Shown: piece by piece, positions 2,296 to 26,487 of the stretch
How positions within the stretch are numbered: the first letter of the stretch is position 1
How the letters are laid out: every line of letters starts with the position of its first letter
Source of the DNA: Stegostoma tigrinum
Taxonomy: Eukaryota
Assembly (NCBI RefSeq): GCF_030684315.1
Contig: NC_081371.1
Coordinates: 40,802,390 to 40,866,389, forward strand
Reading direction: 5' to 3'
Length of the DNA: 64,000 nucleotides
The notes under the pieces: model-generated
The model's input: only the letters and a program-made list of their open reading frames with translations
The model's database searches: none
Told to the model about the DNA's origin: nothing
Translations under genes and position numbers: made by a program

Positions 2296-2434
2296 CTCGG
2301 TACAACAACTGTCTCAAACAGCTCTATCAATTTCCGAGAAATAGACTCCTTTGTCTTTTTTTGTACCTTGTAAGCAAGCTCACTCCAATTCTGGCAGAAT
2401 GGCACATCATATGAAGCATGAAGCCAGCTCAATT
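2296..2434 (-). CDS. Unnamed tandem-CH-domain gene, coding exon 10 (139 nt, phase 1 to 2): (E)LSWLHASYDVPFCQNWSELAYKVQKKTKESISRKLIELFETVVVP
   Basis: Acceptor attgtattgcAG, donor AG|GTAATG. Open frame, and phase matches the preceding exon (AAT G|AA = N,E). Confidence 0.8.
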
Positions 2435-2771
2435 CTGCAATACAATGATTAATTTTCGATTAAATAATGACAAACTTTCTGTCCCATTGGTTGTGGAATT
2501 TACCACATATGTCATTCTCTGCTAAATAACGTATTTTTTTTTATAATTGCTCAAATAATTGCAGAAAAACACCAGAAAATCTTTTCCTTCTCTTACAGAA
2601 AATCTAATCATGCTTTTACAAGAAATCTCTAAGAAGTGCAATTGTAGAAATTCACTTGAAGACAAATCAATATGAATCAGTGGCCTGAATTGTTATTCTG
2701 CTAAAAGAAGTAGGCAAGATGGTCCAGATTGCAAATAACTTGTAAATGAGTAGCATTTGTATCATCAACAG

Positions 2772-4160
2772 CCACTGGTGAAGTGCCAGAAGGCTAATTT
2801 GGTGCCATTACTTAAGAAAGGCTGTAAGAAGAAGCCAGGGAACGATGGACCAGTGAACCCTGCTTAAGTGGTGAGTAAGTTGTTAGAGGAGATTCTGAGG
2901 GACACGATTTACATGCATTTGGAAAGTAATTAGGGATAGTCAACATGACTTTGTGTATGGGAAATCATGACTCCCTAACTTGTTTGAGATTTTTGAAGAA
3001 GTGACAAAGAAGGTTGTTGAAGGCAGAATGGTAGAAGTTGTCATGTGGACTTCAGCAAAACATTTGACATGGTTCCACATGGTAGACTGGTTAATAAGGT
3101 TAGATCACCTGGGATCCAAAGGGAAGCTAGCCAATTAGATACAAAATTGGCTTTAATGTTATAGACAGAAGGTGGTGATAGAGGATTGCTTTTCAGATTG
3201 TGGTGTGTCACAAAGATCACTGTTAGATCCACCGCTTTTCATCATTTATATTCAGATTTGGATGTGAATATCAGAGGTATGGTTTGCAGATGACAACAAC
3301 ACAGGCACTGTAGTGGACAACGGAAAAAATTGTCTCATAATACAATGTTATCTTGATCCGATGGATCAATGGCTGAGAAGTGGCAGATGGAGTTTCATTT
3401 AGATAAATGTGAGATGTTGCAATTTAGTAGGGTAAACCAGGGCAGAACTTTATACAATTAATGGTAGAGCCCCAGGGGCTATTGCCAAACAAAGAGACCA
3501 GGGATGAGGGTATCTAGTTCCTTGAAAGTGGAATCACAGATAGACAAGGTGGTGAAGGTGGCATTTGGCATGCTTGCCTTCATTGGTCAGAACATTGAGC
3601 ACAGGAGCTAGGAAGTTATGTTGTGGCTGTACAGGACATTGGGGAAGCCACTTTTAGAATACTCCATACAATGCTGGCCACCTTTCAGAAAGAAAGGTGT
3701 TGTTAAACCTGTGAGGATGCAGAAAAGATTCACAAGGATGTTGCTGACTCTGGAGGGTTAGGGTTACAGTTACAGGAAGATGTTGAATAGCCTGGGCCTA
3801 GAACTTCGGAGGCTGACAGGTGATCTTTTAAGGTGGATAGGGTGAATAGCCAAGGTTGTCTTCCTTGAGTGGAGGATCCAAGACTAGAGAGCATAGGTTT
3901 AAGGTGAGAGGGAGAGATTTTAAAAGAGACGGATGGGTAATTGTTTCACAGAGAGGGTGGTACATGTATGGAATGAGCTGCCAGAGTAAGTTGTGGAGGC
4001 AGGTACATGTAAAAGACACCTGGATGCATCTATGAATAGGAAGGGTTTAGAGTGATATGGGCCAAATGCTGGCAAATGCAACTGCATATCGAAATATCTG
4101 ATTGGCGCAGACATGTTGGACTGAAGGGTCTGTTTCCGTGCTGTACGATTTTATGACTCT
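2772..4160 (+). mobile_element. CR1 LINE, 5'-truncated and degenerate (RT region to 3' tail)
   Basis: Broken ORF2 motifs (PLLKKGCKKKPGN; DFSKTFDMVPH; FADD). CR1 3' end ctgtttccgtgctgtacgattttatgactct. Confidence 0.9.
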
Positions 4161-4299
4161 GGAAGAGGCCATAACATAGCATGACTTTGATACCTGATCT
4201 ATTATCTATCTATGTGACATACAAGGTCTTTGGAAAAGCAGAGGAATCTGGATTGATTGTAAAGGTTGTCATTGTGTAATTTTGTGGGAATTTTTTCTT

Positions 4300-4690
4300 A
4301 ATAATTCATGTTATGTTGGCATACTGGGCAAAACTATCTTAATTGACCATCAGACACCTTAGGACTCTTAAAGTATGGCCTCAGGACACTGCAAATAAAA
4401 ATACTGCAAGTCTGTTTCTGGGTAGTTAACATTCTTCCACACTGTGATACTGCATAAAATTTGCAGATTTTTCATTTCTCATGGACATTAATGAACCAGT
4501 TGGGTTTTTGGACGTAACCACTAGTTTCGTGATCATCATTATTGTTTACTTGCTTTTCATTCCTAATTTATTTATCTGAATTTAAGTTTCCTAGTTGTTA
4601 TGGTGAGATCTGATCTCAGATTTCTGGCTCATTAGCAAAGGCCTCTGAGTTATTAGAGTGGCAATATAACTACTCTGATATCAACCCCAA
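4300..4690 (-). mobile_element. Degenerate SacSINE1-like SINE
   Basis: Patchy similarity to 8555-8905 (gcagattt...ggacattaatgaaccagttgggttttt...gaatttaagtttcc). Confidence 0.45.
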
Positions 4691-6213
4691 ATGTGAAAGG
4701 AACTTCCATTGCGAACAGTGTGTTGGAAGTGAAGTGTTAGTTTGTGGCTTTGGTGGGAGGGAGATTTTTGGGTGCAAAAGCATAGGGATTGGCAGTTGTT
4801 AAGTGTTGGAGAGGTATTTATCTGGATGTGTAAATATTCAGAAAGGAATCAAGTAGACAGTAACAAGTAGAGGCAAGCAATCTTTGACACAGAAGGGTTT
4901 CTTTTGTTGAAAATCTGACAATGGGATGAGAGATCAGCAGAGTGAATGCTGGAATTTAGGGCTATGAGTGAAGAAAATGGTCAGACTTGGGATTTCATTC
5001 AGGGGAATGTTGGGTTTTGACCACATTGGTGATGGTTTATGGACTAGTGCTATTGGAGATATCAAAGGATTTGGGAAAATTAGGAATGTGATTCATATAG
5101 GAAAATCAGGATAGCTACAACAGGAAAAGGTAGGAAGAAAATGCTGATGGAACGAGTGAGAGACAGCATAAGTTGATATTGGACAAGTAACCCAATTGTT
5201 GTGGAAAACAACATCATCCCACTTGGTATTACATTTTAAGAGCTCAGAAGGTCATGGATCTGCAGCCAGTCATGTGGTAAGTATAAGCCCGCAGTAAACA
5301 AAATAAGGAACAGCAGGTTACAATTTGGGTGGTTATTTTTCTGATCATCCATTGTCCTTTTGCCAGAAGTGGACACGCTGGAGAAACAGCATATAAACTA
5401 CTTACAGCATTTCTCCACGGTATCAGCAGATTTTCAGTGTGAACAATTAGAAGATCTCTTATGGAAATTCACCACCAACAAATTTAAGCATGACACCCAG
5501 GTGTAACAAGCAATGGAATGAAAATAGCAGGAACAGAAAGTATTGTTTGACATATGCAGTATATAAAAGACAAATTTTATTTTACTAATCCATGCATCAT
5601 TTCATAGAAATAAGTTTGTAGATTCCACATCTTGGAACAAGTCCTACTGGCACAGAATTATTCAGATGTTTAATTAGCAGAATGTTTAACAACCCTGTAA
5701 TACTAACCATCTTCACAAATGAACAATACAAAAATGTATGAAGTAGGAGCAGGAATGAGCCACTTGGCTTCTTGAGCCTGCTCTGTCATTCAATAAGGTG
5801 ATGGCTCATTTGATCATTTCAAATTCCCACTGCCCATGATAATATTTGACCCCTTGTTAATCAAGACGTCACCAATCTCTGCCTTAAAATGATTTCAAGA
5901 CACGGGATGAATCATGTGTTTTTTGGCTATGTCAATTAGGTTTCATGTAGGGTTTCTCTCCATGAGGCCTGACAGGTTTTCCTGTCACATCTGAACAAAT
6001 TTGCTTCATTAATTACCTAGCCTACTCCTACGGCACCATTCTTGCCCAATTCTAGCCTGATTCTACAACTTGCCTGTATCTGGTACTACTCTCTGCTGTT
6101 GGGATATCCCAGAATGGATCAGCATCACTGTGTGCCATTTTTAAAAGTCTGGTGAGCAGCCAGACAAACATTGTCAGTGCAGAGCTGCCCAGTTCCTGAC
6201 ATCTGCCACAGAT

Positions 6214-6423
6214 ATGGCAGAGAAAGGAAAATTTGCACCCCGCTTGGCAGGCAGTCACCTGGGGGTTCTGCTGGATGAGGTAGTGCAGAGGTGCAATGTT
6301 TTCTTCTCTCAGGACTAACAGAGGAGGCCACCATACCAGCCTGTCCTAAAGTTGCAGAAGAGTTAGTGAAGCCTTAGTTGTATACACAGCAGTGTAGAAC
6401 AAAGATTATTGCTCTGTTCCACT
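6214..6423 (+). pseudogene. Remnant of a Myb/SANT-like ORF from a PIF/Harbinger transposon
   Basis: ATG at 6214 reads MAEKGKFAPRLAGSHLGVLLDEVVQRCNVFFSQD*, then after a frameshift PACPKVAEEL. This resembles the APRF..LLDEV..R..VLF....AW..VA..V pattern of Harbinger Myb/SANT-like proteins. Confidence 0.55.
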
Positions 6424-7079
6424 TGTTATGGACCAGCCCAAACCCCTCATAATAAATCAAGGAAATAGCCTGCACCCTAACTTTTTCTTCTTTTAACAGC
6501 AAATGTAAGGCATTGAATTCCAGATGCAATCTGATTGGTCAAACTAATCAGCTTAATTCTTTTATTTTTATTTGCCCACTTCAGTTAAAATATAGATAAA
6601 AAATAAAATAAAAGAATTGGATTAACTAATTCTATCAAAATGCTCAAAAAAGTAATATGTTTGTTAACTGCTACTGTTCAATCGTTCCAATACAGCAGCA
6701 TTCTGTAAATACCCTTGGCAAAAGCAAATTTAGCAAAATAGATCTCCTGTATTTGTTGTCCAGATGAGGAGAAAGGAAAACCTCAAAAGCAGAAAAGAGA
6801 GAGCTCGCGCTTTTGCAGTAGCAAAGAGCGGGCCTTCCCCAAAATCCCGGTCCAACTGAAAAGCGAAACCTGTTTGTTGTCTGTGTGATCTTGACTCCAT
6901 CCACTCTTGCTTTTTCTTCTTTAAAATAACAAAGCCAGCTACATTGCTGGGCTGAGAGCAGACAGCTCAACTCCAAGTTTACAAAACTTGCTTTCAAATG
7001 AAACAAGACAGAACAATTCCATCTGAAAGGCTCATCTCGTAAAACACTCCTCCAGCATAACCTTCTCTCTGATACCACA
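6424..7079. mobile_element. Probable solo LTR
   Basis: Starts TGTTAT and ends ACCACA. Flanked by a 4-bp direct repeat CACT (6420-6423, 7080-7083) and interrupts the Myb/SANT-like remnant. Confidence 0.6.
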
Positions 7080-7596
7080 CACTCACTTTATCTTTGCAGC
7101 TGTCTCCACTTCTTATCAAGGCTCATCGTCTACTCAATCACTATCAACATCTTCCCCCACTTGCTCTCACCTGTTGCATCCTCCAACACCACAAACTGTG
7201 TATGCCTGCTACACTGCTTACTCACCCTCTGGGGACACCTCTCTACCTGCACCATTAGTAACAGCTGTGCCACCCACTTTCATCTCCCATTATACCTGCC
7301 TCTCACTAATTCCAGGAGGAAAGTAACCCCCCAATAAAGAGTCAAAACACATGGCATGCTTTCTGACATTCAGCTCCTAACCTATTATGTGGAGACTATC
7401 CTGGCTCTGGCCATCCAGAGTGGCTGACTGATTAGTCCAAGCTCATAGACTGGTATCAAAGGCTGGCCTTCGCTTCCTTCACCAGAACCTTGTGATCAAA
7501 GGCTATCTCTCTTGACTTGATTAAGGACTGCTAATAACCATGACAAAGTTCTCGCCTTTGTGTCTGTGCTAAATAGCAAAGCATACAGAGGTACTG

Positions 7597-7945
7597 TGAT
7601 AACAAAGTGTGAAGCTGGATGAACATAGCAGGTCAAGCAGCATCTCAGGAGCACAAAAACTGACGTTTCAGGCCCAGACCCTTCATCAGAGAGGGGGATG
7701 GGGAGAGTGTTCTGGAATAAAAAGGGAGAGAGGGGGAGGTGGACAGAAGATGGATAGAGGAGAAGATAGGTGGAGAGGAGAGTATAGGTGGGGAGGGGAT
7801 AGGTCAGTCCGAGGAGGACGGACAGGTCAAGGAGGCGGGATGAGGTTGGTCGGTGGGAAATGGAGATGTGGCTTGAGGTGGGAGGAGGGGATAGGTGAGA
7901 GGAAGAACAGGTTAGGGAGGCAGGGATGAGCTGGGCTGGTATTTC
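7597..7945 (-). mobile_element. Penelope-like element (Neptune-type), 3' end/pseudo-LTR only
   Basis: Closely matches 11078-11430 and 32734-33090. Contains ctgatgaagggtctgggcctgaaacgtcag on the - strand. Confidence 0.9.
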
Positions 7946-8554
7946 TGACTGAGAGGCAAGGTAAATCGAGACAAGTCAGGGATGGTGCGAGCATCCAAAT
8001 AGGCTCAAAGTAGGTGAGCCCAAAGAGAGCAAGAAAACAGTCCAGTGGTGTAATTTGGTCCTTCATGTGCCAGGGGCATGTTGCAACAGGCAAGAGTCCT
8101 TGCTGAGGAATTACAATGATAGTTTCTGTAGTGATCACAGGTACAACATTGAAGTGCAAAAATATACTGTTATATGCTCAGAGGATGGAACACATTGGAT
8201 GTCATTGACATGATGATGGGGTGCATGTAGCCAGTTCCCATTTAGTATTCCCTGAACTATTGGTTTCTCCCGTCTTTGGCGCAACTGGAATAGCTGAATA
8301 CCTACTTTGACATCCATGTTTAGAATTGCTCATATCTAGTTTGCTCACAGTGGATGGTAGGAAGGAAAGCCACAAAACTTGCAGTTAGTAAAGTTGTTCA
8401 TAAGTAATTGTCCCCCTTACTAGATAATTTACCACTGTTTAGCAGGAATTTCTCCTGGGTGTCCGGAACTTAGTTAAAAAAATTAATGAGTTGCTTCCAG
8501 TGTTGAGAAAGGTCTCCCTGGATGTCTTGTACAATTCCACCAGACCTTTTTTTG

Positions 8555-8905
8555 CCTTTATTCATTAATGGGATGAGGGCATTGCTAGCTAGGAAGCATT
8601 TATTGCCCATCCCTAATTACCCAGTGGGCAGTTTAGAGTCAACCACATTGCTATTGATCTGGAGTCACATGTAGGCCAGACCCAGTAAGGATGGCAATTT
8701 CCTTCCCTCAAGAACATTAGTGAATGAGAAGGGTTTTACTGACAATTGACAATGGATTCATGGTTACCATTAGATTCTTAATTCTAGACATTTCACTGAA
8801 TTCAAATTCCACCATTTGCCATGGCAGGATCTGAGCCTGGGCCCCCAGAACATTTCTGGCCTCTGGATTAACAGTCCAGCAATGATACCAGTAGGCCATC
8901 ACTTC
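8555..8905 (-). mobile_element. tRNA-derived SINE (SacSINE1/DeuSINE-like)
   Basis: The - strand starts with a tRNA-like head (tggcctactggtatcattgctggactgttaatccagagg) and ends gccctcatcccattaatgaataaa. Related copies occur at 690, 4300, 17440 and 43577. Confidence 0.7.
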
Positions 8906-8929
8906 CCTTTCGATATTCCATATTGCTCT

Positions 8930-11035
8930 GGCCACTATAAGATTCCACCCATGGCTTCTAACATGTTTTGAGAAAGACAGTTCTAAAGACTTACGGCTTG
9001 TGACTGCGATTACAAAAAATTCTCCTCGTCTCTGTCTTAAGTGGGTGGACACTTACTTTAAAACAGTGACCCATTGTTCTAGAATTTCCACAAGAAGAAA
9101 CATCTTTTATTCATCCACTCAATCAAGACCCCTCAGGATTTTACACGTTTCAATCAAGTCACACATACTCTTCTAAACTCCAGCACCTGCAAGCTGAACC
9201 TGTTCAACTCTTCTCCTAAGACAACCTGCTCATTTCAGGTATTAATCTAGTAAACCTTTCCCCAACTGCTTCAAACACATTTTGATCCATCCTCAAGTAA
9301 GAAGACAATACAGTACACAGCACTCTAAATGTGCTCTTATCAATGTCCTGCGTAGCTGAAGCATGACCTTTCTACTTTTGTATTCAGTCCCTCTTTTACT
9401 GAATGATATTATTCCAGTAGCTTTACTAATTACTTATTGAATCTGCATGTAACCTCATGTAATTCATACACTTGGACACCCATATGCTGCTAAATCTCAT
9501 AACCGCAATCTCTGAATATTTAGATAATTTGCTCCTTTTTATTCATCCTGCCATAGACTCATAGAGGTATATAGCATGGTAACAGACCCTTCAGTCCAAC
9601 TCATCCATACTGACCAGACATCCTAACTAAATCTAGTCCCATTTGCTAGCATTTGGCTCATATCCCTATAAACTCTTCCTATTCATATACCCATCCAGAT
9701 GCCTTTTAAGTGTCGTAATTGTACTGGCTTCCACCACTTCCTCTGGCAACACATTCCATACACACACCACCTGCTGCATGAAAACGTTATCACTTAGGTC
9801 CCTTTTAAAGCTTTCCCCTCTCACCTTAAATCTGTGCCCTCTAGTTTTGGAATCCCCCCACCCCACAGAAAAGACCTTGTCTATTTATCTTATCCAAGAC
9901 CCGCGTGATTTATAAACCCCAATAAGGTCACCCCTCGGCCTCCGAAGGTCCAGGGAAAATAGCTCCAGGCTCTCCCTTAAATCAAACCATCCAATCCTGG
10001 CAACATTCTTGTAAATCCTTTCTGAACCCTTTAAGTTCCACAACATTCTTCTGATAGCAGGGAGACAAAAATTGAATGCAGTACTCCAATAGTGGCCTAA
10101 CCAATGTCCTGTACAACCGTAACATGACCTCCCAACTCCTTTTCTCAATGCAATGTCCAATAAAGGCAAGCATACCAGACGGCTTCTTCACTATCCTATC
10201 TACCTGCGACTCCATTTTCAAGGAACTATGAACCAGCACTCCAAGGTTTCGATCTTTAGCAACACTCCCCAGGACCTTACCATTAAGTGTATAAGTTCTG
10301 CCCTGATTTGCTTTTCCAAAATGCAGCACATCACATTTATTTAACTTAAACTTCATTTGCCACTCGTTGGTCCATTGGCACATCTGATCAAAATCCCAAA
10401 ATAGACAATTTCACATGATACTCCTTTTGTTAGACATTTTTCTTCCCCCATTTACCACCTACTTATTTACCTTCGAATGTCCTTTTTAAAAACTTACTTT
10501 CCTGTCTACCTTTGTGTCAACAGCAAAAGTAGTAACCATACCTTTGGTGCCTTCACTCGAGTCATTTACATAAATTATAAAAAATTTGAGGCCAAGGCAC
10601 TGATCCTTAGGATACACTGCTTGTCACATGTTGCCAAAAAAGAATGTCCCATTTACAACTACTCTCTGTTTCCTGCTAGCTAGCAAATCTTCTGCCTATG
10701 TGTTATGTTAACACTACGCCATGGGGTCTTATTTTCCACAATAGCTGTTAATGCAGCACTTTAACAAAAAGTCTTCTAGAAATCTAAATACAATACATCA
10801 ACTGGTCCCCTCTATGCACATCACATTATTTCTTCAAAGCACTCCAAAGAGTTGTTTATAGATGAGTTTCCTTTCACAGAAGTATGTTGGCTCTGCTGGC
10901 TACCCTGAAATTCTCCGTAAGTACTCTGCTTCTGACACCTTCTCAATGACAGACATTAAGCTAACTGGCCTATAGTTTCCTGCTTTCTCTCCGCCTCCCT
11001 TTTTGAATAAGGAAGATACATTCTCTAAATACAGA
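8930..11035 (-). mobile_element. Old CR1 LINE split by a younger CR1 (9555-10400)
   Basis: The - strand at 10950-11030 encodes SLFKKGGGEKAGNYRPVSLMSVIEK. Degenerate RT and 3' sequence lies on both sides of the nested copy. Confidence 0.7.
9555..10400 (-). mobile_element. CR1 LINE 3' portion
   Basis: ORFs 9982-10383 (WQMKFKLNKCDVLHFG...LYRTLVRPLLEYCIQF) and 9666-9866 (KTRGHRFKVRG...WNVLPEEVVEA). The CR1 tail is at about 9555. Confidence 0.92.
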
Positions 11036-11077
11036 TCCTTATTTTTTCTATTTTGACAATTACAAATTCTTTCATAG

Positions 11078-12697
11078 ATAATAAAGTGTGAAGCTGGATG
11101 AACACAGCAGGCCAAGCAGCATCTCAGGAGCACAAAAGCTGACGTTTCGGGCCAAGACCCTTCATCAGAGAGGGGGATGGGGTGAGGGTTCTGGAATAAA
11201 TAGGGAGAGAGGGGGAGGCGGACCGAAGATGGAGAGAAAAGAAGATAGGTGGAGAGGAGATTATAGGTGGGGAGGTGGGGAGGGGATAGGTCAGTCCAGG
11301 GAAGACGGACAGGTCAAGGAGGTGGGATGAGGTTAGTAGGTAGGAGTTGGAGGTGCGGCTTCGGGTGGGAGGAAGGGATGGGTGAGAGGAAGAACCGGTT
11401 AGGGAGGCAGAGACAAGCTGGACTGGTTTTGGGATGCAGTGGGTGGAGGGGAAGAGCTGGGCTGGTTGTGTGGTGCAGTGGAGAGAGGGGACGAACTGGG
11501 CTGGTTTTGGGATGCGGTGGGGGAAGGGGAGATTTTGAAGCTGTTGAAGTCCACATTGATACCATTGGGCTGCAGGGTTCCCAAGCGGAATATGAGTTGC
11601 TGTTCCTGCAACCTTCGGGTGGCATCATTGTGGCACTGCAGGAGGCCCATGATGGACATGTCATCTAAAGAATGGGAGGGGGAGTGGAAATGGTTTGCGA
11701 CTGGGAGGTACAGTTGTTTATTGAGAACCGAGCGGAGGTGTTCTGCAAAGCGGTCCCCAAGCCTCCGCTTGGTTTCCCCAACGTAGAGGAAGCCACACCG
11801 GGTACAATGGATGCAGTATACCACATTGGCAGATGTGCAGGTGAACCTCTGCTTAATATGGAAAGTCATCTTGGGGCCTGGGATAGGGGTGACGGAGGAG
11901 GTGTGGGGGCAAGTGTAGCATTTCCTGCGGTTGCAGGGGAAGGTGCCGGGTGTGGTGGGGTTGGAGGGCAGTGTGGAGCGAACAAGGGAGTCACGGAGAG
12001 AGTGGTCTCTCCGGAAAGGAGACAAGGGTGGGGATGGAAAAGTGTCTTGAGTGGTGGGGTCGGATTGTAGATGGCGGAAGTGTCGGAGGATGATGCGTTG
12101 TATCCGGAGGTTGGTGGGGTGGTGTGTGAGAACGAGGGGGATCCTCTTAGGGCGGTTGTGGTGGGGGTGGGGTGTGAGGGATGTGTTGCGGGAAATGCGG
12201 GAGACGTGGTCAAGGGCATTCTCGACCACTGTGGGGGTAAAGTTGCGGTTCTTGAAGAACTTGGACATCTGGGAATTGCGGGAGTGGAATGCTTCATCAT
12301 GGGAACAGATGCGGCAGAGGCGGAGGAATTGGGAATAGGGGATGGAATTTTTGCAGGAGGGTGGGTGGGAGGAGGTGTATTCTAGGTAGCTGTGGGAGTC
12401 GGTGGGCTTGAAATGGACATCAGTTACAAGCTGGTTGCCTGAGATGCAGACTGAGAGGCCCAAGAAGGTGAGGGATGTGCTGGAGATGGCCCAGGTGAAC
12501 TGAAGGTTGGGGTGGAAGGTGTGTGTGAAGTGGATGAACTGTTCCAGCTCCTCTGGGGAGCAAGAGGCAGCGCAGACACAGTCATCAATGTAATGGAGGA
12601 AGAGGTGGGGTTTGGGGCCTGTGTAGGTGCGGAAGAGGGACTGTTCCACGTAACCTACAAAGAGGCAGGCATAGCTGGGGCCCATGCGGGTGCCCAA
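11078..12697 (-). mobile_element. Penelope-like retroelement (Neptune-type), 5'-truncated, with an uninterrupted RT C-terminus plus GIY-YIG endonuclease ORF
   Basis: 434-aa ORF 11399-12703 contains GTRMGPSYACLF, YIDD, a Cys linker CNRRKCYTC and GIY-YIG VVYCIHC..CGFLYVGET.RRL..RF.EH. The pseudo-LTR is at 11078-11170. Confidence 0.95.
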
Positions 12698-12832
12698 GGC
12701 CAAAATTAATTTTACCTGTTTTGTAGTATTGAGAACTTAAAATAAATGTCCACAATAGGAAATACTTTACACTAAATGACAAACATAAGATATACAGTAT
12801 GCAGTTGTGCTTTTGTAATGTGGTCCACCCAC

Positions 12833-12959
12833 CATTTTTGATTTTCTCCAGCTTTTCCTGTAACTCGCTTTTTTGAGTAGATTGAACTGACTCCAGGCCT
12901 TTGGCAGTGAAGGTTTTCAATTGTGACTGTAACTTATTCGTTAAAAGATGTAGCTCTCT
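12833..12959 (-). CDS. Unnamed tandem-CH-domain gene, coding exon 9 (127 nt, phase 0 to 1): RELHLLTNKLQSQLKTFTAKGLESVQSTQKSELQEKLEKIKN
   Basis: Acceptor ttgtttctttggcccAG, donor G|GTGGGT. Heptad-like L/Q/E/K pattern; phases match both neighbours. Confidence 0.85.
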
Positions 12960-15281: not shown

Positions 15282-15363
15282 CTCAAGCAGATCTTGTGAT
15301 GTAAACGAGGTTGATGTACAAATAAATTCTTCCATTGTTTTTAAAGCAAGATTTGTTATCCAT
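15282..15363 (-). CDS. Unnamed tandem-CH-domain gene, coding exon 7 (82 nt, phase 2 to 0): (R)WITNLALKTMEEFICTSTSFTSQDLLE
   Basis: Acceptor ttaattttatAG, donor GAG|GTAACA. Resembles CH2 N...AF..AE..GI..LL..ED. Confidence 0.9.
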
Positions 15364-15446: not shown

Positions 15447-15574
15447 CTGTCACATGGCAGCATTTCCACAATGAATGTGCCAGGCATGAAGGAATTTACC
15501 AGATAGCACCAGACATGACTGTCGACCAAGTCACTTAAATCTTTTATAAGGAGTTTGTGGCCTTCAGATGCAAT
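15447..15574 (-). CDS. Unnamed tandem-CH-domain gene, coding exon 6 (128 nt, phase 0 to 2): IASEGHKLLIKDLSDLVDSHVWCYLVNSFMPGTFIVEMLPCD
   Basis: Acceptor tttttttttcatttacacAG, donor AG|GTGACT. IKDLSDLVDS..WCYLVNSFMP resembles CH V.NF..SW.DG.AFCAL.H...P. Confidence 0.9.
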
Positions 15575-16148: not shown

Positions 16149-16255
16149 CTGTAAATGGGCATTAACGAGATCCAGGATGCATTCAACACCGGAAGGGTAG
16201 TAATCCCAGCCTTCTTTAGGAATCTTCTTGTTAAATATTTTAGCTACCTCACGAC
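16149..16255 (-). CDS. Unnamed tandem-CH-domain gene, coding exon 5 (107 nt, phase 1 to 0): (G)REVAKIFNKKIPKEGWDYYPSGVECILDLVNAHLQ
   Basis: Acceptor tattctgtctctaAG, donor CAG|GTGGTT. ECILDLVNAHL fits CH helix A. Confidence 0.85.
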
Positions 16256-17110
16256 CTTAGAGACAGAATACAGGCAAAATTAATATTCCACTTTTCTCAT
16301 TCTTGGACAACTAGCATTTTTTCTAAAGAAACAGCATGATAACTTTTGATTACTGCCTGAAAACTCAATGGGTAAAGTTGCTTGTCAAATATTCCATGCT
16401 CTTTTCAAGAGGGACTCCACAGCCACAGTGCTTTACCTCATTAAACATAGTTAGCAAAAATAAATTGAAGTAATTCTGCATGCAGTTTATCCTCTCCATG
16501 AATTTGAAATAATAGTAATGGATATTTCCAAGAAAGATGTTGTAATAAGGTCCCAAGACTAGTCTAAAGACTAATTTTTTTTATACAGCAAATAACTTAT
16601 TTCAATTGTTCATGTTTTGTAAGTTAACTACAGCAATATGAAAACATATTGACATTTCATAAACCGGAATTTCTAACTTTTAGGCTAAGAAACGGGGGAA
16701 AAATCATTTTAATTAGCATGCTTTATTATAAATGCTTTCAAAAAGAACATGATTACAACTTTACTGCACAAATAATTCTTTCCTCAGTTTCAATCTATTT
16801 ATATCTTTTTACTATAAGATTCTATATCTCTCTTCACAGATGCTGCTGAGTTTCTCCAGCACATTCTGTTTTCATTTCAGATTTTCTGCGTCCACAGTAT
16901 TTTGCATTTATTAGACACAATAAGAGATTGTTATCTTTACTGGTGAATCAAAAACAGGAGGGTACAGTTCAGAGTAAGATATTGTCTGCCATTTAAGACA
17001 TATTTTATCAAATTTGGTTATATAAACTTACTGTGCAGTACCTCAAGATGCTTTACTGTGTTAATACTTATATAAATGTGAGTACTTAAATCTAATAATG
17101 TAACAATTAC

Positions 17111-17276
17111 CTGGAAAAGGCTCAAAATCCTGCGATTGTAATGATTTAATCACAGAAGAAATAGAAGATTTTTCTGTAGAATCTGTTGAGATCTCAAGTT
17201 CATCAAAAAATGACAGAGGTGTTTTTGTTTCTTGAATAGACTTCTCCTGGTCTAGTGATTGAACCTTTGGGGTCCA
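17111..17276 (-). CDS. Unnamed tandem-CH-domain gene, coding exon 4 (166 nt, phase 0 to 1): WTPKVQSLDQEKSIQETKTPLSFFDELEISTDSTEKSSISSVIKSLQSQDFEPFP
   Basis: Acceptor tgttttgaattcAG, donor CAG|GTAATT. 55 open codons forming an S/T/E-rich linker between the CH domains. Confidence 0.85.
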
Positions 17277-18116: not shown

Positions 18117-18227
18117 CTTGAAACAAACAGAGCAGACCAGTTTGTCATTGTCAAGCAGCAGTTGGCTGGATCGTTCCCAGGTGAACTGGATATCATGCAC
18201 TATTAACCTCCACAGCAGTTCCATTAT
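18117..18227 (-). CDS. Unnamed tandem-CH-domain gene, coding exon 3 (111 nt, phase 0 to 0): IMELLWRLIVHDIQFTWERSSQLLLDNDKLVCSVCFK
   Basis: Acceptor atttgtactttAG, donor AAG|GTACAA. IMELLWRLI matches the CH1 C-terminal helix (TLGMIWTII / ILGLLWQLI). Confidence 0.9.
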
Positions 18228-18629: not shown

Positions 18630-19340
18630 CCTTCATCTATGCTACAAGTAACATCCTCAAAAAGCTAAAACAGGTTTTCAAAACATGATTTCCCTTTCAT
18701 AAATCAATATTGATTCTGCTCAATCATATAATTATTTTCCAGGTTCCCAACTATCACCACCTTTAAAGCATTCTAATATTTTTCCTTCTGCTCAACATCA
18801 AATTAAAAGGACTGTAGTTCTCCATTTCATCTGTTCCTCCCTTCTTAGGGAACACATATACTTTTAGGATTACATTTTCTATTTTCCAGTCTACAGGAAA
18901 CTTCCCAGAACTTAGAGTTTTGAAATGTAAGCATCAATGCATTCATTTTCTCTTTAGCCATCTCCTACAAACACTGGGATATTGCTTATTGATTTGGGGG
19001 TTTATCAGCCTTCAACCCAGTTAATTTTTCACGCTGTAGCTGTTTATTAATATTAATTTCTTTCAGGACATCATTTTCACAATTTGCTTGGTTCCCTGGT
19101 GTTTCTGGGACATTTTTTGTATTTTCCTCCGTAAAGTCAGACAAAAATTATTTGTTTAGCTTCTCCACCATTTCTGCATGCCACTATAAATTGTCCTCCC
19201 TCCATCTGTAGCAGTCACACATTTTACCTTTCTAATTTTTTGCTATTGTATACCTAAAGAAGTTTTACATTCCACCTTATGATTCTTCCTAGTTTGCAGT
19301 CTTATTCTCATTTCCATGAGTTATTAATTTCTTGATCACT
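18630..19340 (-). mobile_element. Degenerate CR1 ORF2 fragment
   Basis: Plus-strand aaaacatgatttccctttcataaatc... and ...aaggactgtagttctcc are reverse complements of CR1 RT segments (HGF.KGKSC; GNYRP). Confidence 0.6.
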
Positions 19341-20051
19341 TTTGCCGAAGTCAAAATTGCTCCTAACTTTTTCTCATATTTATAACATTAGATTCAAAAT
19401 TCTTTATTGATCATTCATAGGATTTGGGCAGCACTGACGAACCCAGCATTTATTTTTCATCCTTCATTGCTCTTGAGAAGTTGTTATGAGAGATTTTGTT
19501 AAAAACTTCCAGGCCTTAGGATGTACAGACAACCACAGTACTGTTAAGAAGCAAGGTCCAGGACTTTGACACAGAGGAAGAATGGCAATATAATTCCAAG
19601 TCAAGGTGATAGAGGTGCTTGTTTTGGTAGGTGTTTTGCTGCAGCAGGTCTTGTAGGTGGAATACACTGCTGCCATATGTAGGATTAATGGGGATGTTAG
19701 CAAATCCTGATTGGTTTTGTTATAAGCACTCAACATCAATTGGTTCGTCTGTTACATTGTTCTAATTAACTGTAAGCAATGTAGATTTTAGTACTTTAAT
19801 ATCATGTGACTCTGCTTAGCTTAATTTGACAAAGAAATGCACCATGAGATTGTGAACCAGGTGAAAACAATACATTAATATTTTAGACGTACAGGTACAA
19901 AACCAAGGTGCCCCATTTATTTGGCTTCTATTTCATGTTTGTGGCAACATCAGAATAAGACAGAGGTTGTATCCTCCCAGGTCTTTACCCTTTATCAAGA
20001 TATCATAACCAGAGTTGTGCCTCTGTACTGGTGTTATTTTAATTTGGTTTA

Positions 20052-20356
20052 GAATTCCTAGAGTGTGACAACAGGCTCTTTGGCCCAACAAATCCACGCT
20101 GACCCTCAGAACATCCCACCCGGACCCATCTCCCCAACCGACACATCCCTGAACACTATGGGCAATTCAGCACAGCTAATCCATCTAGGCTGCACATCTT
20201 TGGACTGTGGGAGGAAACCAGAGCACCCAGAGAAAACCCACGCAAACACAGGGAGAATGTGCAAACTCCACACAGACAGTTACCCAAAGGTGGAATTGAA
20301 CCCTGGTTCCTAGCGCGGTGAGGCAGCAGTGCTAACCACTGAGCCACCCTGCCACG
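20052..20356 (-). mobile_element. HE1-type shark tRNA-derived SINE, near full length
   Basis: The - strand has A box tggctcagtgg, B box ggttcaattcc, V-domain tgtctgtgtggagtttgcacattctccctgtg...tttcctcccacagtccaaagatgtgc and a CR1-like tail. Confidence 0.88.
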
Positions 20357-22439
20357 TCATGGTTTAGAAGTAAATCAATTGATTGGAAGTAAATTTGTAT
20401 AGAATTAACTTTGAAAAGATTAGACTTGCATCACTCAAAACTATGTATTGAAGCACATGTCACTGCTTCACTCTTTTTTGATTAACTTGGTTGAGATTAG
20501 TACTTTGTGATCTGTTTTAGTTTTATATAGTCTTGAGGTTTTAAGTAGTCTTTTTTACCCAATGCCCTTTGTCTTTCAAATAAAAGGGCAATTAAAAATC
20601 TAGGCATTTAAACATACATGATTTAACAAATGGATCTAAGAAGAACAAATGTTCATTTATAAGTAAGTGTCTGATTTAATGGGAAGTTCAATAATAAGGA
20701 AGAACTTAGACATGAGCTCAAAAATATCAGTCACTGGGTCCGAACTGAATATGCCTCCCTTTTCTCAATAAAAGGAGTAAAGAACATTCCAACCTATCCA
20801 CTTAGTAAAAAGTCATACAATGACAATAATAAAACTAAATGAAGAGGGTGGGCCATAGGCCAATTTATTCATTCATAAATAGTTAAATGGATCCAGTCAA
20901 GGTCCATCACCCATAAAAAAAATTAGAAGTTGATCATGCATCGTTTGAACCAAGTAGCTGTCTCACCTAACCTAGGTCAATTAGAATATAATTATGTAAT
21001 CAATCACCCTGGCTTGGAAAAAGTTAAGAAGCAGCTACTTTCAGTGATCAAAGGGTACATTAAGTTTGAAAATGAGGTTATTCTGCTGCCCAAGTGAAAT
21101 CAGTTGATTCTCAATATATTAGAGCGAGAGATCAGAGATGAAATGTTGACTTGCACTCCATGACAAGTAAGAAAACAAGAGCTGTAATACACCCATAGCA
21201 TATTATCATGGTATATAAAGTTACTGATCTGTTTTATTAAGTATAGCTTAAACAAAATTGTCTGAAGTACTGCAGCATGATGTTTCCTTTTTTTTGGTTA
21301 AAGTCACAAATGAATACATTAATATTGGGATTTGAGATTAAAATGTAACCTAGAACTCAGACATTTGCCAGTATTGAGGGGAGTGAATGTTGAAGGTAAT
21401 GGATGGGGTGACAGTCAAAAGGGTATCTTATCCTGGATAGTGTAGCCAGGACTTTTATCCAGCAACACTGATGAAACAGTGGTGCATTAGTCAAGAATCC
21501 TCTGCCTATTGGCATTGTGGGTCAACTCATGACAGGTGGACTGCAGTGGTTGAAGAAGGCAGATGACTACCACTTTCCCGAGGGCAACCACGGGCAATAA
21601 ATGCTGGGCCCAGTCAATGACACTCATATACCATGGATGAATAGAAAAAGATTCAGCATGAAGATGGTGTGAAGCTTAGGGGACGTGGGGGGGGGGGGGG
21701 TGGACAGTGCAAGTGGTTGGGTTGCCATGTTGCTTTTGTCCTTCAAGATGGTAGTCTTTATGCATTTGGAAGGAACTGCCTGAGGAACCTTGGTGAATTT
21801 TTGCAGTGCATCTAACAAGTGTCCATGGTGAACGTTTGTGGCTGGGTGCCATCAAGTGGACTGCTTTGTCCTGGATGGTGTCAAGCTTCTTCAGCATTAT
21901 TGGAGTTGCAACTATCTGGGTTATACACCATCCTGATTTGGAATTTTTCTATGGTGGACAGAAGGCCATTGATGAAGCAGCTGAAGATGTTTGGCTCCAG
22001 GAAACTAATCTAGGTCTCTCCTCTACTGTTGGTTCATCTCTCCTCTACTATCTCTCTTCTACTCCTCCACTGGTTACAACTGTTCTTAAAATTATTTTCT
22101 CTAAAAATATAAAGAATTAACTGGAGCATGGAACCAGAGCCATTTAGCCTGAAACAAAAGAGTGACAATTTGAATTTAATGTATCAGAACTTTTCAGGAG
22201 AACATTTGATAAACATTTGTAATTTTGGAGCATTGTTCTAAATGCACAGTACCAACAAGTGAAAAGTACCGAAATAAAAAGGCAGGATAGAATCATTGTT
22301 TGATCAGAATTTGATCTCTATTCTATCCAGGTATACCATCATTGTCAATCTCAGATGGATAATTGCAGTGTGTGATGCAGAGTTGGCATATCAGAGATAC
22401 ACTGCATTTGTAAAGGATATGATAGTAGAGAATTCAGAA

Positions 22440-23130
22440 ATATAATAACCACATGGAGTCTTGACGGCTTTATGAATGAGAAATCATATTCTATAAAGAG
22501 TTAACAAGCAGGTCAAACAAAAGAGAATCAACAGATGTAACATACTTGAATTTCCAAAAGGCAATTGTAAGGTACTTCAGATGCTACTTAATAAGATGAG
22601 GCCATGACATTGGGGTCATTTTTTCATAATGGAAGATTGGCTAACCAATAGAAAACAGAGTTGGGATGAAAGGGGCATTTTCAGGATGGTGACCTGTACC
22701 CTAGGGAGCATGACAGGGATCAATGCTGTGGCCAAAATTGATTACAATATACATTTATGACTTGGCTGATGGAAGTGAACATACTATTGCCAAGTTTGCA
22801 GATGGCACAGAAATAGCAAAGTTTTAAAAATGATACAAATGATAGGTATACAAATATTGATCGCATGGGCACAAACTTAGCAAATGGAATGTAGTATTGG
22901 GAAATGCGAGGCTATGCATTTTGGAGGGAAGAACAGAAATTCTGAAGATTATTGAAATGGAGAAAGACCACGGGAATCTGTGGTACAGGGGAATTTGGGC
23001 ATCCAGTGAATGATTTACAAAATGTTAGCATTCTAGTTCAGCTGGAGCTCAATTGGAGAGTCGAGAACCAGGGGTCATAACCTGAGAGGAAGGTGCCTGT
23101 TTAAGACAGCTGATGAGGAATTTCTTCTCT
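22440..23130 (+). mobile_element. Degenerate CR1 RT fragment
   Basis: gaagattggctaaccaatagaaaacagag (EDWLTNRKQ) and attgccaagtttgcagatggcac (IAKFADG). Confidence 0.75.
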
Positions 23131-24992
23131 CATGACAAAGGTAATGCCATATGGGCAACAATCCTCTAGTACCAGGACTGAAAAAATCTTGGTCACCAGG
23201 ATCACATCCACAGAGTAAAGGAAAACATCCAGCTTAGTCAACAACTTGAAGTAGTGTGCTTTTAAACTTCACCACAAACATATTGTTAGATTGGGTGTAA
23301 TGGTTTGCTTGACCGAAATGGAGATGAGCTGCTTGCAAGTCCATGAAACCAAGACTTAAGTCTACAGATTCAGATTTTACTTAAAAGACAATTCCTTGTG
23401 TGATAATTCAGAATATTATTAAGTCTGAAAATCTAAGATACTGTAGGGAAGAAAGTACTAGCTTTAACGGTGCAGCTGTCTTCTATGAAATATTTGTGAG
23501 ATTAAAAATCCTCGCAATAATATTAGGAACAACTACATGAGCTGTCAGGGAGGAGTTCCTTTTGAAGGTAATTCAGCTTGAATGCTCTGCATATAAGGTA
23601 ATGATGCCACTATCAGAATTAGCAGGAACAACACTCTCCAAAAAGGACATCCAAGGATTAAATGATTCTGTAGGGGAGAAATAATTTACAAAGTTCAAAA
23701 TCGAGGTCAACAATCCTCAGGCCAAAGGCCTAAAAAAATCTAAAAAGTCCAAAGGGAACATGTTCTGGGAAAATTTGAAAAGCCTGCAGCAGCCTGAACC
23801 TTTGAAGTCAGTGACTTGGGGGTAGATGGAGTAGTGGTAAGTGTAGAGAATAAAATACAGAAAGAAAGACTGGCTGCTGCTTTTGTTTCAATGCCCTATC
23901 AGGGGCTGTTTAACCATTTAATTTGATGTTAATGAGAGTAGAAAGAAGGACTGGTGGCAGCCCTCTACTACTGCAGGTGGCAGTAATGCAAAACATAACA
24001 TGGTGATTAGCAGTGGATTTGTCGCATCAATAACTCAAGGTAACAGTAGTGGAAAAAAATTCCATTTGACTTATTAACAAAAATTCACCACTTCAAGAAC
24101 ATCACCATAATAACAACACATGCAGTGTCATAATATGGTGAATTCATGGACAGAATGAACAGTGTTATAATGGTTATAATAATTGTGTGAGGTGAAATCG
24201 TGGAACGAGTTGAAAACATAAACGCGAAACTTAGAATCTTAAAGTGAATGCTGGAAGGTTTCCTGAAGGAACCACACAACTCCTAACACCAATCCCTCCA
24301 AGAATCTAATTTCTATGACTTTCCATTTAATAAATACTCAAAACAGCTTCTCACTAAAGCTGTTTGAGCTGAATTTGTTCAGTTTCCAGCCAGGAAAAGA
24401 GTGCTGTCTGAAATCATTTTATATGCAGTGTCCAACTAATACAATCTGCATGTCAGCAAAATTCTTACTGTTCAAAGAGAACCCTTGAGGCATTAAATAT
24501 GAAAGTCAATTACCTTTTAAACTTTTAAACTAAATTAATTTTAAAACTGCATGAGTTGCAATCATACCACAAGAGGTGTAAAGCCAACATAATGATACAT
24601 GATTGCTTTAAGGTGTTGGCACATTTTTTTGAAACCAAATCTAAGGGATCACTGTAGTTATGTAACAGATTCCAAATCTGATTTCACAAATTTATTTGAA
24701 CACCTGACTGATAAACCTCCAAGAAGGGAGCCTGCACTCAGTGAGTAGAGCTGATTCCCTGATCCACCATACCTGTGAGCTCAGTTCTCAACCTGAAGCA
24801 TAGGAAGCACAATTATCACTCTCAGCAATATATTGTCTATTGAACATGATTTCAATCCACCCAATGGCATTGAAAGGAATTATTACATATTTATTATAAT
24901 TATCAAAATATCAATTCTTAAGGTATTAATGTTATTTAATGTAGTGTCACCCACACAGGAGAATTAAAATTGAAAGAGACCCTGTTACGTAC

Positions 24993-25162
24993 ACGTTTCG
25001 TGTTTTTCTTGGCAATCGTGCCACAATCAATTTCGCTATTCTCTGGTAAAATGCCAGCTGCCCGCAGTTCAACCAGTAGCAACTCAAACTGTGCTGCAAC
25101 TTGCCGGCTTGAGTGGCAGCAAGTCATGCTGCGCATATTCTTCGATGACTTTCCAATGAAAC
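24993..25162 (-). CDS. Unnamed tandem-CH-domain gene, coding exon 2 (170 nt, phase 1 to 0): (G)FIGKSSKNMRSMTCCHSSRQVAAQFELLLVELRAAGILPENSEIDCGTIAKKNTKR
   Basis: Acceptor aactttttattAG, donor CGT|GTACGT. LRAAGI...IDCGTIAKKNTK resembles CH1 L...GV....I....IV.GN.K. Confidence 0.9.
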
Positions 25163-25724
25163 CTAATAAAAAGTTAATAATGTCTTTTTCAATAACTCTC
25201 AATCAACAAATGGCAGAAAAAAAACAAATATTTTGGAAAATCAGGGTTCAGAAATCTGTCTTTATTGAATAAAAATAATTGCATAGATCCTGTCAAGTTC
25301 CTCACTTATGTGGTCAAATCAATGTTTACAATAACTATATCACGCAAGCATTAAATTTTCAATTCAGGAATAATTGTCCTAATATTATCCCCTAAAATCT
25401 TCTGTACAGAAGTTGCAACAATTACTTTTAATAAATATAGGAATTAACAGCAAACCTCTTCGCTTGTTTCTGAATCTGCCTATCCCATTTAATTTTCATA
25501 CAAGTTTATATGAAGGTGTGGCCTATAGATTAGACATTATAATAGTCACTCAGCAGACTAAATGCTGTTTAAATAATATTTACGCAACAGTTTTTCCAGA
25601 AAAGATGCTTTTCATAGAAGTATTTGAAGTGGCATAAACCTAGTACATCTATGCCAAAGCAAATAACTTCCTATTGTCAAATGCTGCAGAGATATTTCTA
25701 AAACATTGATTTATTTGAACTTAC

Positions 25725-25854
25725 CTTCTAACAAGGATTTCAAATGAGTGCCTGCGAATAGATCTGTAAATACATTATTGAGTGGTCGATCAAGTGATGA
25801 ACATCGCATATTTGCCCAGGCTGTGTAACATGCTATTTTTGACTGTTGAGACAT
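25725..25854 (-). CDS. Unnamed tandem-CH-domain gene, first coding exon (exon 25725-25900; CDS 130 nt): MSQQSKIACYTAWANMRCSSLDRPLNNVFTDLFAGTHLKSLLE
   Basis: Acceptor ttttttatttgcAG at 25901. An in-frame TAA directly precedes the ATG at 25854; donor AAG|GTAAGT. YTAWAN....L.NVFTDL..G..L..LLE fits the CH1 consensus (FTAWCN...I..I..DF.DG..L..LLE). Confidence 0.9.
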
Positions 25855-26487
25855 TTAATTATATATTTTCCAAATCATTAGTTGGAAATTCCTTCGATAT
25901 CTGCAAATAAAAAAGCAATTAAATGAAATGTTCAGCAATAACCATCCTACTTCTCACTTTCAGTCTCTATAGCAAAACTTTTCTTCTTGGACAATGTGGA
26001 CAAATAGCCTAATCAATTGCCTGCAGCTATGTTACTAGATATTTTCACTGACACTAACACTTCGTTGTAAGTGTACATGGCAGTTAAGATGGTAACAGAC
26101 TGGTCAGCTCTTTTTTAAATTTGGTGATCTTTTACTATAATTACAGATGAGGTGCCAGATGACTGGAGGGTGACTACCTTCGTCTAAGAAAGGTTATGAG
26201 GCGAAACCGGGGAACTATAGATCTGTGAATTTGACTTCAGTTGTGGTACATGGTTGAAGGTGATTATAAAAGATAGAATTTATGGACGTTTAAAGAGGCA
26301 CAAATTGATTAGGGATAATCAATATGGTTTTGTGCGAGGAAAATTGTGTCTTACAAACTTGACTGAGTTTTTTGAGGAGGTACCAAAAAGACTGATGACG
26401 GCATAGCAGTTGAAGTTGTTTATTTGGATTTTAGTAAAGCTTTTGACAAGGTTCCACATGGTAGACTAATTAGTAAAGTTAGGTCAC

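Follow-up and report, generated by a model that had tools for sequence, protein, structure and literature searches.

The gene LOC125460951 of Stegostoma tigrinum, whose first ten coding exons lie in the window analyzed here (the whole stretch of 64,000 nucleotides), encodes a 1,044-amino-acid protein that, by its sequence, opens with a CH1-type and then a CH2-type calponin-homology (CH) domain of the alpha-actinin class and joins these to other parts toward the C terminus. In order, CH1 is followed by a conserved helical extension, a 46-amino-acid linker of variable sequence, CH2, three long helices, an unclassified 114-amino-acid domain (domain X), and ankyrin repeats; domain X and the repeats make up 60% of the protein. 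The reading we lean toward, tentatively, is that of a closed-by-default adaptor that would tie an ankyrin-bound partner to F-actin; we infer both the actin binding and the “cytoskeletal” role.

An exon walk of the RefSeq protein (“uncharacterized LOC125460951”) resolved 26 coding exons spread over 100 kb of the minus strand; the gene is single copy. The exons, when spliced, reproduced that protein letter for letter; every one of the 25 introns has a GT donor, all 26 exons are in frame, and a TAA ends the last. A preliminary description of this DNA had proposed ten minus-strand exons that join into 416 stop-free codons directly preceded by an in-frame TAA; all ten coordinates were right, with 10/10 GT donors, 9/9 AG acceptors (exons 2 to 10), and matching phases, and the walk returned the same ten boundaries. 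The intact gene it described is thus real, but the ten exons are only the first 416 codons (1,250 nucleotides in total) of a 26-exon gene, and the gene it called unnamed, while lacking a proper name, already stands in RefSeq as an uncharacterized entry. Features in the window are as follows.

25725..25854, minus strand: exon 1, amino acids 1-43; ATG, CH1 helix A, YTAWAN motif
24993..25162, minus strand: exon 2, amino acids 44-100; CH1 middle
18117..18227, minus strand: exon 3, amino acids 101-137; last CH1 helix (W106), then the conserved extension (D112, I113, F115, W117, R119)
17111..17276, minus strand: exon 4, amino acids 138-192; the conserved W138 and P140 followed by the variable linker, rich in S, T, and E
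16149..16255, minus strand: exon 5, amino acids 193-228; segment ahead of CH2, and CH2 helix A, where position 222 is not Trp
15447..15574, minus strand: exon 6, amino acids 229-270; CH2
15282..15363, minus strand: exon 7, amino acids 271-298; CH2, with conserved D270-R271-W272 and D295-L296
15087..15176, minus strand: exon 8, amino acids 299-328; last CH2 helix, modeled as one helix to about amino acid 342
12833..12959, minus strand: exon 9, amino acids 329-370; helical segment
2296..2434, minus strand: exon 10, amino acids 371-416; last stretch of the helical segment, then the first strand of domain X
1..2295, minus strand: start of intron 10, from the exon walk
25855..25878, minus strand: upstream open reading frame of 7 codons, its TAA abutting the main ATG, read from the sequence

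Exons 1 to 10 contain no stop codon; the last of them closes in phase 2 and is followed by a GT donor. The other 16 coding exons (11 to 26) lie outside the window, at window positions -13,484 to -74,272 (down to about base 40,728,117), and add the rest of domain X, the ankyrin repeats, and the TAA. About 45 nucleotides upstream, a pyrimidine tract followed by AG suggests a further, noncoding exon 5' of the ATG. An Rfam search gave no match. The gene sits between a liprin-alpha gene and CCDC59/METTL25-like, and the CCDC59 neighbor that had been named in advance is supported by a PF08524 match at window positions 38779-38928. Cross-species conservation of the exons, a check set beforehand, was found: related sequences, ranging from those of sharks to those of bivalves and of an acoel, aligned over exons 1 to 10 at 31 to 81% identity. 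The ends of short database fragments from other animals concentrated at profile positions 44 (6/94) and 136-137 (10/94), which are intron positions in the shark gene; because relatives align across the ten exons and fragment ends match shark introns, these exons are not chance.

Records of the family bear automatic names only. The UniRef orthologue label reads “Calponin-homology (CH) domain-containing protein”; the “filamin-A-like” label of one relative rests on a 140-amino-acid CH1 fragment, and the name “Ankycorbin” on one sturgeon record is a misfit for a protein with N-terminal CH domains, with which the ankycorbin architecture is presumably incompatible.

The class assignment, as first proposed, stands on profile searches. 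A profile built from the first 523 positions matched the actin-binding domains of alpha-actinin, utrophin, filamin, plectin, and dystrophin (best E value, 4e-8), and Pfam CH, which covered CH2, matched in 8/8 members at E ≤ 1 (best, 7e-11); the best ESM Atlas result for the CH region (0.80) serves as a lead only. Positions 4-108 and 239-309 aligned, in order, to both CH domains of Entamoeba actinin (5nl7), an alignment that reached 4e-8 as a whole with CH2 alone not significant. The FTxWxN motif of helix A (ABS1) aligned to utrophin and actinin and was well kept (T11 in 39/43, W13 in 40/43, and N15 in 40/43 sequences), and in the last CH1 helix (ABS2) W106, retained in 45/49, fell opposite the Trp in the LGLVW motif of actinin. 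Around this Trp the motif is replaced: actinin DGN corresponded to A94 (40/48) and residues that vary, and D, E, or N took the place of the Gly that precedes the Trp in 38/49. We take W106 to be the equivalent of filamin A W142. The latter is reported to be buried in the closed form and to contact actin in the open form (PMC8810934).

Several elements of classical actin-binding domains are reduced or missing. Since in almost every named animal member the Met lies only 9 residues ahead of the motif aromatic, these have hardly any N-terminal extension, and the actin-contacting region ahead of CH1 (ABS-N) is absent from most of them; longer N termini occurred only in three unicellular members, one further member, and one divergent catshark model. 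In beta-III-spectrin, filamin A, and utrophin, removal of this extension abolishes or weakens actin binding (PMC8810934, PMC6938246). The helix-A Trp of CH2, reported missing in the shark protein, proved absent family-wide, with no W at column 222 (placed by the WxN register) in 44 sequences, and a basic residue (K or R) at latch position 302 of CH2 occurred in only 16/46. The lack of the extension in most animal members, the changed DGN/Gly, the weakly kept latch, and the low model confidence in the CH1 middle (given below) speak against the actin-adaptor reading.

The separation of the CH domains by about 100 amino acids was correctly described in length, but the gap is not all S/T/E-rich linker. 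Residues 114-141 were 39 to 93% identical to the shark in 24/25 other named animal rows (29% in Macrostomum) and residues 188-214 were moderately conserved, whereas residues 142-187 formed a variable linker, 3 to 19% identical outside cartilaginous fishes; positions 140-187 were modeled at a pLDDT under 50, as was the CH1 middle (47-94) in a 13-sequence model. Within the extension, D112, F115, W117, and R119 were as conserved as the CH core, and a modeled helix (98-123) spans the last CH1 helix and the start of the extension. Despite the gap, CH1 is predicted to pack onto CH2: a complex model of amino acids 1-142 with 186-410 scored 0.76 (best of three controls, 0.20), a pass that may reflect likeness, as these are two halves of one protein that resemble solved domains. 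The score mark was reached by 51/78 solved and 2/108 mismatched microbial pairs and by 39/65 solved and 2/126 unrelated eukaryotic pairs. Runs of the complex model shared at least 64% of contacts with a partner pLDDT of at least 69, and 14/31 CH1-side interface residues fell in the extension (112-130), with D112, F115, W117, and R119 in or beside the predicted interface.

In the model, the linker would loop out while CH1 still packs on CH2, and the last CH1 helix would continue through the extension, placing I113 and W117 against CH2 helix A (218-222). There, the usual CH2 Trp is missing, so that the pair would be clamped shut with W106 buried. If the pair behaves as tandem-CH domains do elsewhere, CH1 would become accessible to F-actin on opening, with the long, flexible linker allowing CH2 to move out of the way; the spacing between the CH pair and the ankyrin repeats may be provided by the three helices and domain X. 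In utrophin, an unstructured linker raised actin affinity (Kd, 0.7 uM) (PMC6938246). A role at the cortex of ciliated or flagellated cells would be a guess based on which species retain the gene.

The enlarged predicted interface could also mean that the CH pair never opens. A permanently clamped pair that has lost F-actin binding and serves as a rigid base for a different protein, in the manner of parvin, or for structures of microtubules or cilia, is a possibility we take seriously while judging it unlikely. It would fit the altered actin-binding motif, the missing N-terminal extension, the CH core-like conservation of the four extension residues in or beside the predicted interface, and the habit of the three named unicellular carriers, which are flagellated taxa. 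Against such a platform, all PDB sequence matches at E < 0.001 were F-actin-binding tandem-CH proteins and none was of the microtubule type, W106 and the FTxWxN motif are retained, and classical tandem-CH domains are likewise closed in solution.

The C-terminal portion contains a readily recognized part and an unclassified one. The ankyrin repeats (Pfam Ank, E value of 7e-40, 8 stretches) gave structural matches over 528-996 with Z up to 22 and were the sole return of fold searches with the whole-protein model; structural matches stood at 14 to 28% identity, a generic similarity. Domain X matched no Pfam family. Its model was confident (pLDDT, 88; pTM, 0.81), and it had no Foldseek match in the PDB at E ≤ 0.001, none in a viral structure library, and nothing in ESM Atlas; the best VIA result was a ThiS-like protein (Z, 4.8; rmsd, 2.6; 56 aligned), tied with LysM, and Axin DIX (2d5g) reached a background Z of 3.0 (rmsd, 2.7; 57 aligned). 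These model-based results support neither assignment of domain X to a known fold nor a claim that its fold is new. An ASCH-type hint (PRK04980, E value of 0.095, 1/13) was unsupported by fold search.

Domain X also occurs C-terminal to vWA in cyanobacteria, myxobacteria, the fungus Jimgerdemannia, and large DNA viruses, where the viral group is PHROG 26613, listed as function unknown. That domain X is itself the working part, whether by ligand, nucleic-acid, or small-molecule binding or by catalysis, with the CH pair and ankyrin repeats only placing it, strikes us as improbable. Its polar residues are kept from bacteria to sharks (E, 50/54; S, 40/47; N, 41/47; Y, 43/45), some vWA-X proteins also carry BRCT or RING, and an open reading frame with a ligase-type motif was the next one in 38/77 bacterial loci scored (one confirmed as an NAD-dependent DNA ligase), all of which would favor such a role. 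Yet the ligase link was seen solely in cyanobacteria, Nostocales for the most part, and may reflect a single arrangement passed on by descent; no structural match hinted at activity; and duplicated copies, as for binding modules, do occur (on both sides of a central region in four proteins looked at, and two copies alone in one). By eye, no conserved MoxR-like neighbor was seen in the 25 commonest neighbor clusters of 80 bacterial loci.

The helices between CH2 and domain X (320-407, three long helices in the structure model, where a coiled coil had been proposed) raise the idea that the protein dimerizes through this segment to cross-link actin, as alpha-actinin or cortexillin does, and the alignment to Entamoeba actinin does continue beyond CH2 to position 326, in the neck, with a nonsignificant score. 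We regard this as quite improbable, as spectrin repeats were matched in none of eight members at E ≤ 1 and, of the folded parts, this one is the least conserved (17 to 45% outside cartilaginous fishes among animals). Decay or silence of the locus in S. tigrinum is scarcely credible given the in-frame exons, GT donors, and terminal TAA noted above, the 86 to 96% identity of folded parts to bamboo shark against 70% for the linker, the single copy, and the several isoforms that databases list for caecilian, frog, and starfish. Four sequence runs compared with the locus were contigs that cover introns and lack splicing, and they carry no weight on expression in either direction.

Orthologues were found in sharks, sturgeons, gar, coelacanth, amphibians, lamprey, invertebrates, a choanoflagellate, Pigoraptor, and Chromosphaera; the family suspected of belonging to cartilaginous fishes is therefore holozoan-wide, while remaining uncharacterized and unnamed as described. 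Literature searches on the family, architecture, domain X, and locus, mostly of titles and abstract starts, returned no description of it. No teleost or amniote appeared among the named matches of database searches, and loss in both is suggested; the possible loss in mammals raised at the outset agrees with these searches. Electroreception, the spiral valve, and the sperm acrosomal process were dropped as reasons for the vertebrate distribution because, to our knowledge, gar, frogs, or unicellular carriers break each. A broader proposal, rather doubtful as a whole, is of an overlooked pre-animal tandem-CH class in which an actinin-type pair, a domain X of undescribed fold shared with bacteria and large viruses, and ankyrin repeats were joined in a holozoan ancestor. 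The class would have its own clamp (a Trp of the CH1 extension for the lost CH2 Trp), would organize the actin cortex in cells with flagella or cilia, and would have been lost independently by teleosts and by amniotes; such losses would explain why the family is unstudied.

Tandem-CH actin-binding proteins are considered well catalogued, yet here is a single-copy family of fixed architecture, from ichthyosporeans to frogs, with no name or paper found; if it was lost in teleosts and amniotes, it would have been out of reach of the main vertebrate models. With its long linker and predicted extra clamp, the protein lends itself to testing the control of CH1-CH2 opening in a naturally occurring setting, and domain X, unclassified and common to bacterial and viral vWA proteins, is a structure that could be solved. 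As a candidate component of the early-animal actin cortex, the family is testable in frogs, tunicates, or echinoderms.

Among known systems, the closest are alpha-actinin (Entamoeba 5nl7/6sl2, human ACTN2/3), utrophin, dystrophin, filamin, plectin, and beta-spectrin, which share the N-terminal CH1-type then CH2-type order, the FTxWxN motif, the Trp of the last CH1 helix, a long helix after CH2, and, as predicted here, a closed interface to which each domain contributes helix A and its last helix. The shark protein differs in its roughly 100 amino acids between CH domains, including the conserved helix extension (the filamin A linker has 12 amino acids; PMC9132340), in lacking the N-terminal extension and CH2 helix-A Trp, and in its altered DGN/LG motif. 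Domain X and ankyrin repeats stand in place of spectrin, Ig, plakin, or EF-hand modules: spectrin and EF-hand had no Pfam match in LOC125460951 (E ≤ 5) or eight N-terminal halves (E ≤ 1), and Ig-like filamin repeats were seen neither by Pfam search nor in the structure model. The four CH domains and N-terminal EF-hands of plastin/fimbrin are absent (two CH domains, Met at helix A), and the ASH domain and IQ repeats of ASPM had no Pfam match in LOC125460951 and two relatives at E ≤ 5. The architecture agrees with the initial judgment that the protein is not actinin, filamin, plastin, parvin, DIXDC1, calmin, or ASPM. DIXDC1, composed of a CH domain, a coiled coil, and DIX, resembles it in having CH, then a helical segment, then a small beta-rich domain; the shark protein has two CH domains and ankyrin repeats, and no Pfam DIX match was found in it or in the eight N-terminal halves. 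The vWA-X proteins share the 110-amino-acid domain X (27 to 37% identity, with GFY...E and S-x-N-x-x-L...LY motifs), which there lies C-terminal to vWA without CH or ankyrin. Espin, ankycorbin/RAI14, and ankyrin are ankyrin-repeat cytoskeletal adaptors, and we know of no tandem CH pair or domain X in these or in KANK. KANK is likewise an ankyrin-repeat cytoskeletal adaptor (PMC9145010). In combining ankyrin repeats with a cytoskeleton-linking module, this group is probably the working analogue of the shark protein.

The ten minus-strand exons of the preliminary description recurred in the window sequence at their positions, with GT donors, AG acceptors and fitting phases, and when joined (1,250 nt) they again formed an open frame of 416 codons, preceded by a TAA in frame. 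A GT donor closes exon 10, and the gene therefore extends past it. Exon 2 as the sole query recovered P0001, a 1,044-aa protein (100% identity) recorded as [quoted passage not shown]; the gene is already annotated, but without a name. Mapped on 150 kb of adjoining assembly sequence, P0001 has 26 coding exons, of which these are the first ten, with GT-AG at all 25 introns and a TAA stop at window position -74,272, beyond the window start. Searching the genome with an orthologue of 507 aa gave 12 matches, every one of them inside this locus. A seven-codon upstream ORF (window 25855-25878, minus strand) ends in a TAA immediately before the main ATG, with a splice-acceptor-like tract ~45 nt upstream of it; the ORF could reflect translation tuning or chance. 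Compared with shark exon borders, database models lack exon 9 (P0002) or roughly exon 8 (P0009), or run into intron 3 and then stop (P0003), reflecting alternative splicing or prediction errors.

The gene order on the contig, and features of the window, are as follows.

Contig 40.43-40.47 Mb, minus: liprin-alpha gene, first
Contig 40.73-40.83 Mb, minus: studied gene, second
Third, minus: CCDC59 (PF08524 match)
Fourth, plus: METTL25-like gene (PF13679 match)
Window 38779-38928, minus: CCDC59 exon, last of three (PF08524 match)
Window 46601-46909, minus: candidate CCDC59 exon
Window about 50600-50850, minus: candidate CCDC59 exon
Window 50897-51523, plus: ORF in CpG-rich stretch
Window 11399-12736: Penelope-like retroelement-end fragment in intron 9, 445 open codons
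Window 32971-34027, 42532-43531, 55976-56738: further Penelope-like retroelement-end fragments
Window 9885-10410, 38018-38425, 60834-61226: broken CR1-like LINE fragments
Window 16843-16884: intron 4, short repeat of high copy number (depth thousands vs about 6-25 flanking)

Among four liprin-alpha loci found, the one beside the studied gene is presumably PPFIA2, by human synteny. The two candidate exons we tentatively assign to CCDC59 by position, and 46601-46909 had no Pfam match. The plus-strand ORF is probably the first exon of METTL25, which would lie head-to-head with CCDC59; a CpG-rich kilobase lies within 50001-51523 (observed/expected 0.75), and the PF13679 exons lie ~31 kb beyond the ORF, past the window end. 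A reverse transcriptase tail and GIY-YIG-like motif in the four Penelope-like fragments are taken to mark Penelope-type ends, and the three LINE fragments are presumed CR1-like from their motifs.

Pfam detected ankyrin repeats in P0001 (8 stretches, E 7e-40) and a weak CH match under the cut-off (E 7e-4). A profile built from eight N-terminal halves of members outperformed Pfam on P0001 alone; its PDB matches at E<0.001 were solely actin-binding domains of alpha-actinin, utrophin, filamin, plectin, dystrophin and MACF1, and Entamoeba actinin aligned in the same order (positions 4-108 to CH1, 239-309 to CH2). An AlphaFold model from 13 sequences (mean pLDDT 79, pTM 0.48) predicts a helix (98-123) continuing beyond the end of CH1, three helices after CH2 (301-342, 352-378 and 381-407), a beta-rich domain, X (410-520), followed by paired helices as far as about 990, with low confidence at 140-187 and in the middle of CH1 (47-94). 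The conservation pattern follows these boundaries: shark and bivalve are 38% identical in CH1, 43% in the extension, 6% in the linker, 48% in CH2, 20% in the helices, 45% in X and 43% in the ankyrin repeats.

First searches named relatives in sharks, rays, sturgeons, coelacanth, caecilian, lamprey, tunicate, bivalves and acoel; further ones came from gar, bichirs, a second caecilian, four frogs, two newts, starfish, Macrostomum, a bdelloid rotifer, a sponge (partial model), the choanoflagellate UC4, Pigoraptor and Chromosphaera, the last three unicellular proteins sharing an identical CH, X, ankyrin order. The records P0015 (Convolutriloba), P0016, P0017 and P0026, among others, end at or soon after X, without full ankyrin repeats, and may be either split annotations or genuinely short proteins. 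A quick 44-row tree, excluding fragments and most short matches, broadly mirrors the species tree; the acoel placement beside chordates and the long unicellular branches are uncertain. Its vertebrate clade (17 rows, support 100) holds 16 named rows and one 97% identical to Huso, none from teleosts or amniotes. Names were looked up for 30 of the best 150 representatives (782 at E<=0.001), which conceal members >50% identical; about nine short vertebrate-like fragments carry no species name, and searches at 90%, with 8,000 candidates scored, missed frogs and gar. Amphibian orders are mutually only 43-48% identical, so amniote orthologues, if they existed, would probably have made up separate clusters; loss in teleosts and amniotes therefore appears likely. 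No arthropod or nematode occurs among named relatives, and several protostome-like rows carry no species name.

The profile also matches proteins sharing just positions 405-520, one of them named (the fungus Jimgerdemannia); 7 of 15 scanned had a vWA match at E<=0.01, including P0164 (BRCT-vWA-X). Scans for X confirmed 249/288 candidate stretches in prokaryotes (the best 80 mostly from cyanobacteria and myxobacteria) and 303/374 in viruses; 80 viral loci were kept, and 79 of them gave an X match, nearly always behind an N-terminal region of at least 200 aa. Among scanned viral X proteins, 7/10 matched vWA, two with a RING finger too.

L125:3446-5131 and L137:3401-5140, giant-virus bins: RING finger-vWA-X proteins
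L020, L024, L025 and other cyanobacterial loci: vWA-X, then ligase-type ORF

Of 77 scored bacterial loci, 38 had an NAD-dependent DNA ligase-type ORF as the next one after the vWA-X gene, commonly no more than 50 nt away; these neighbours are not independent, because they are mostly Nostocales. In MoxR-vWA systems effectors lie C-terminal to vWA (PMC8195603), and no MoxR-like neighbour recurred among the 25 commonest neighbour clusters of the 80 bacterial X loci, as judged by eye. Locus L164 has a weak acyl-carrier-like match C-terminal to X. All 13 aligned X members matched PHROG 26613 (function not known); the predicted fold is confident (pLDDT 88), and structural searches with it gave no clear match.

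Folded without alignments, residues 1-142 and 186-410 scored 0.76 (median, three runs) vs 0.20 for the best of 3 controls, with contact agreement of at least 64% and partner pLDDT of at least 69. The score mark was reached by 51/78 solved vs 2/108 mismatched pairs in a microbial benchmark and by 39/65 solved vs 2/126 unrelated pairs in a eukaryotic one; the pass may stem from likeness, the partners being halves of one protein and resembling solved domains. On the CH1 side, 14 of 31 predicted interface residues lie within extension 112-130, which in the model would depart from textbook tandem-CH packing. There, I113 (kept in 40/49 sequences) and W117 (43/49) contact C218, I219, D221 and L222, the site of the missing CH2 Trp. 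Only 16/46 sequences have K or R at 302, the basic latch position. We infer that the extension may provide the clamp of the CH pair.

Some actin-binding features are kept and others changed, and we accordingly divide our expectation: P0001 is tentatively a regulated actin adaptor, at somewhat under even chances, and a clamped pair binding something other than actin seems unlikely, if still a serious rival. Motif FTxWxN and W106 are preserved among members. Contacts are carried by CH1, and W142 of filamin A touches actin when open and is buried when closed (PMC8810934); W106 presumably corresponds to this W142. In utrophin, an unstructured linker increases affinity (PMC6938246). Favouring the clamped pair, the N-terminal extension before CH1 is missing, its removal elsewhere lowering or abolishing binding (PMC8810934, PMC6938246; boundaries of ABS-N, ABS2 and ABS2' as in PMC9132340), and the DGN motif and the Gly preceding the conserved Trp are both substituted.

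We found no paper on the family in the literature covered, which lay outside subscription journals and supplements; orthology databases may list the group, and a term search of a CH-domain review (PMC7240100) gave no mention of ankyrin. Membership of P0001 in the actinin, filamin, plastin and ASPM families was rejected. The family is real, ancient and testable. P0001 most likely works like a tandem-CH adaptor.
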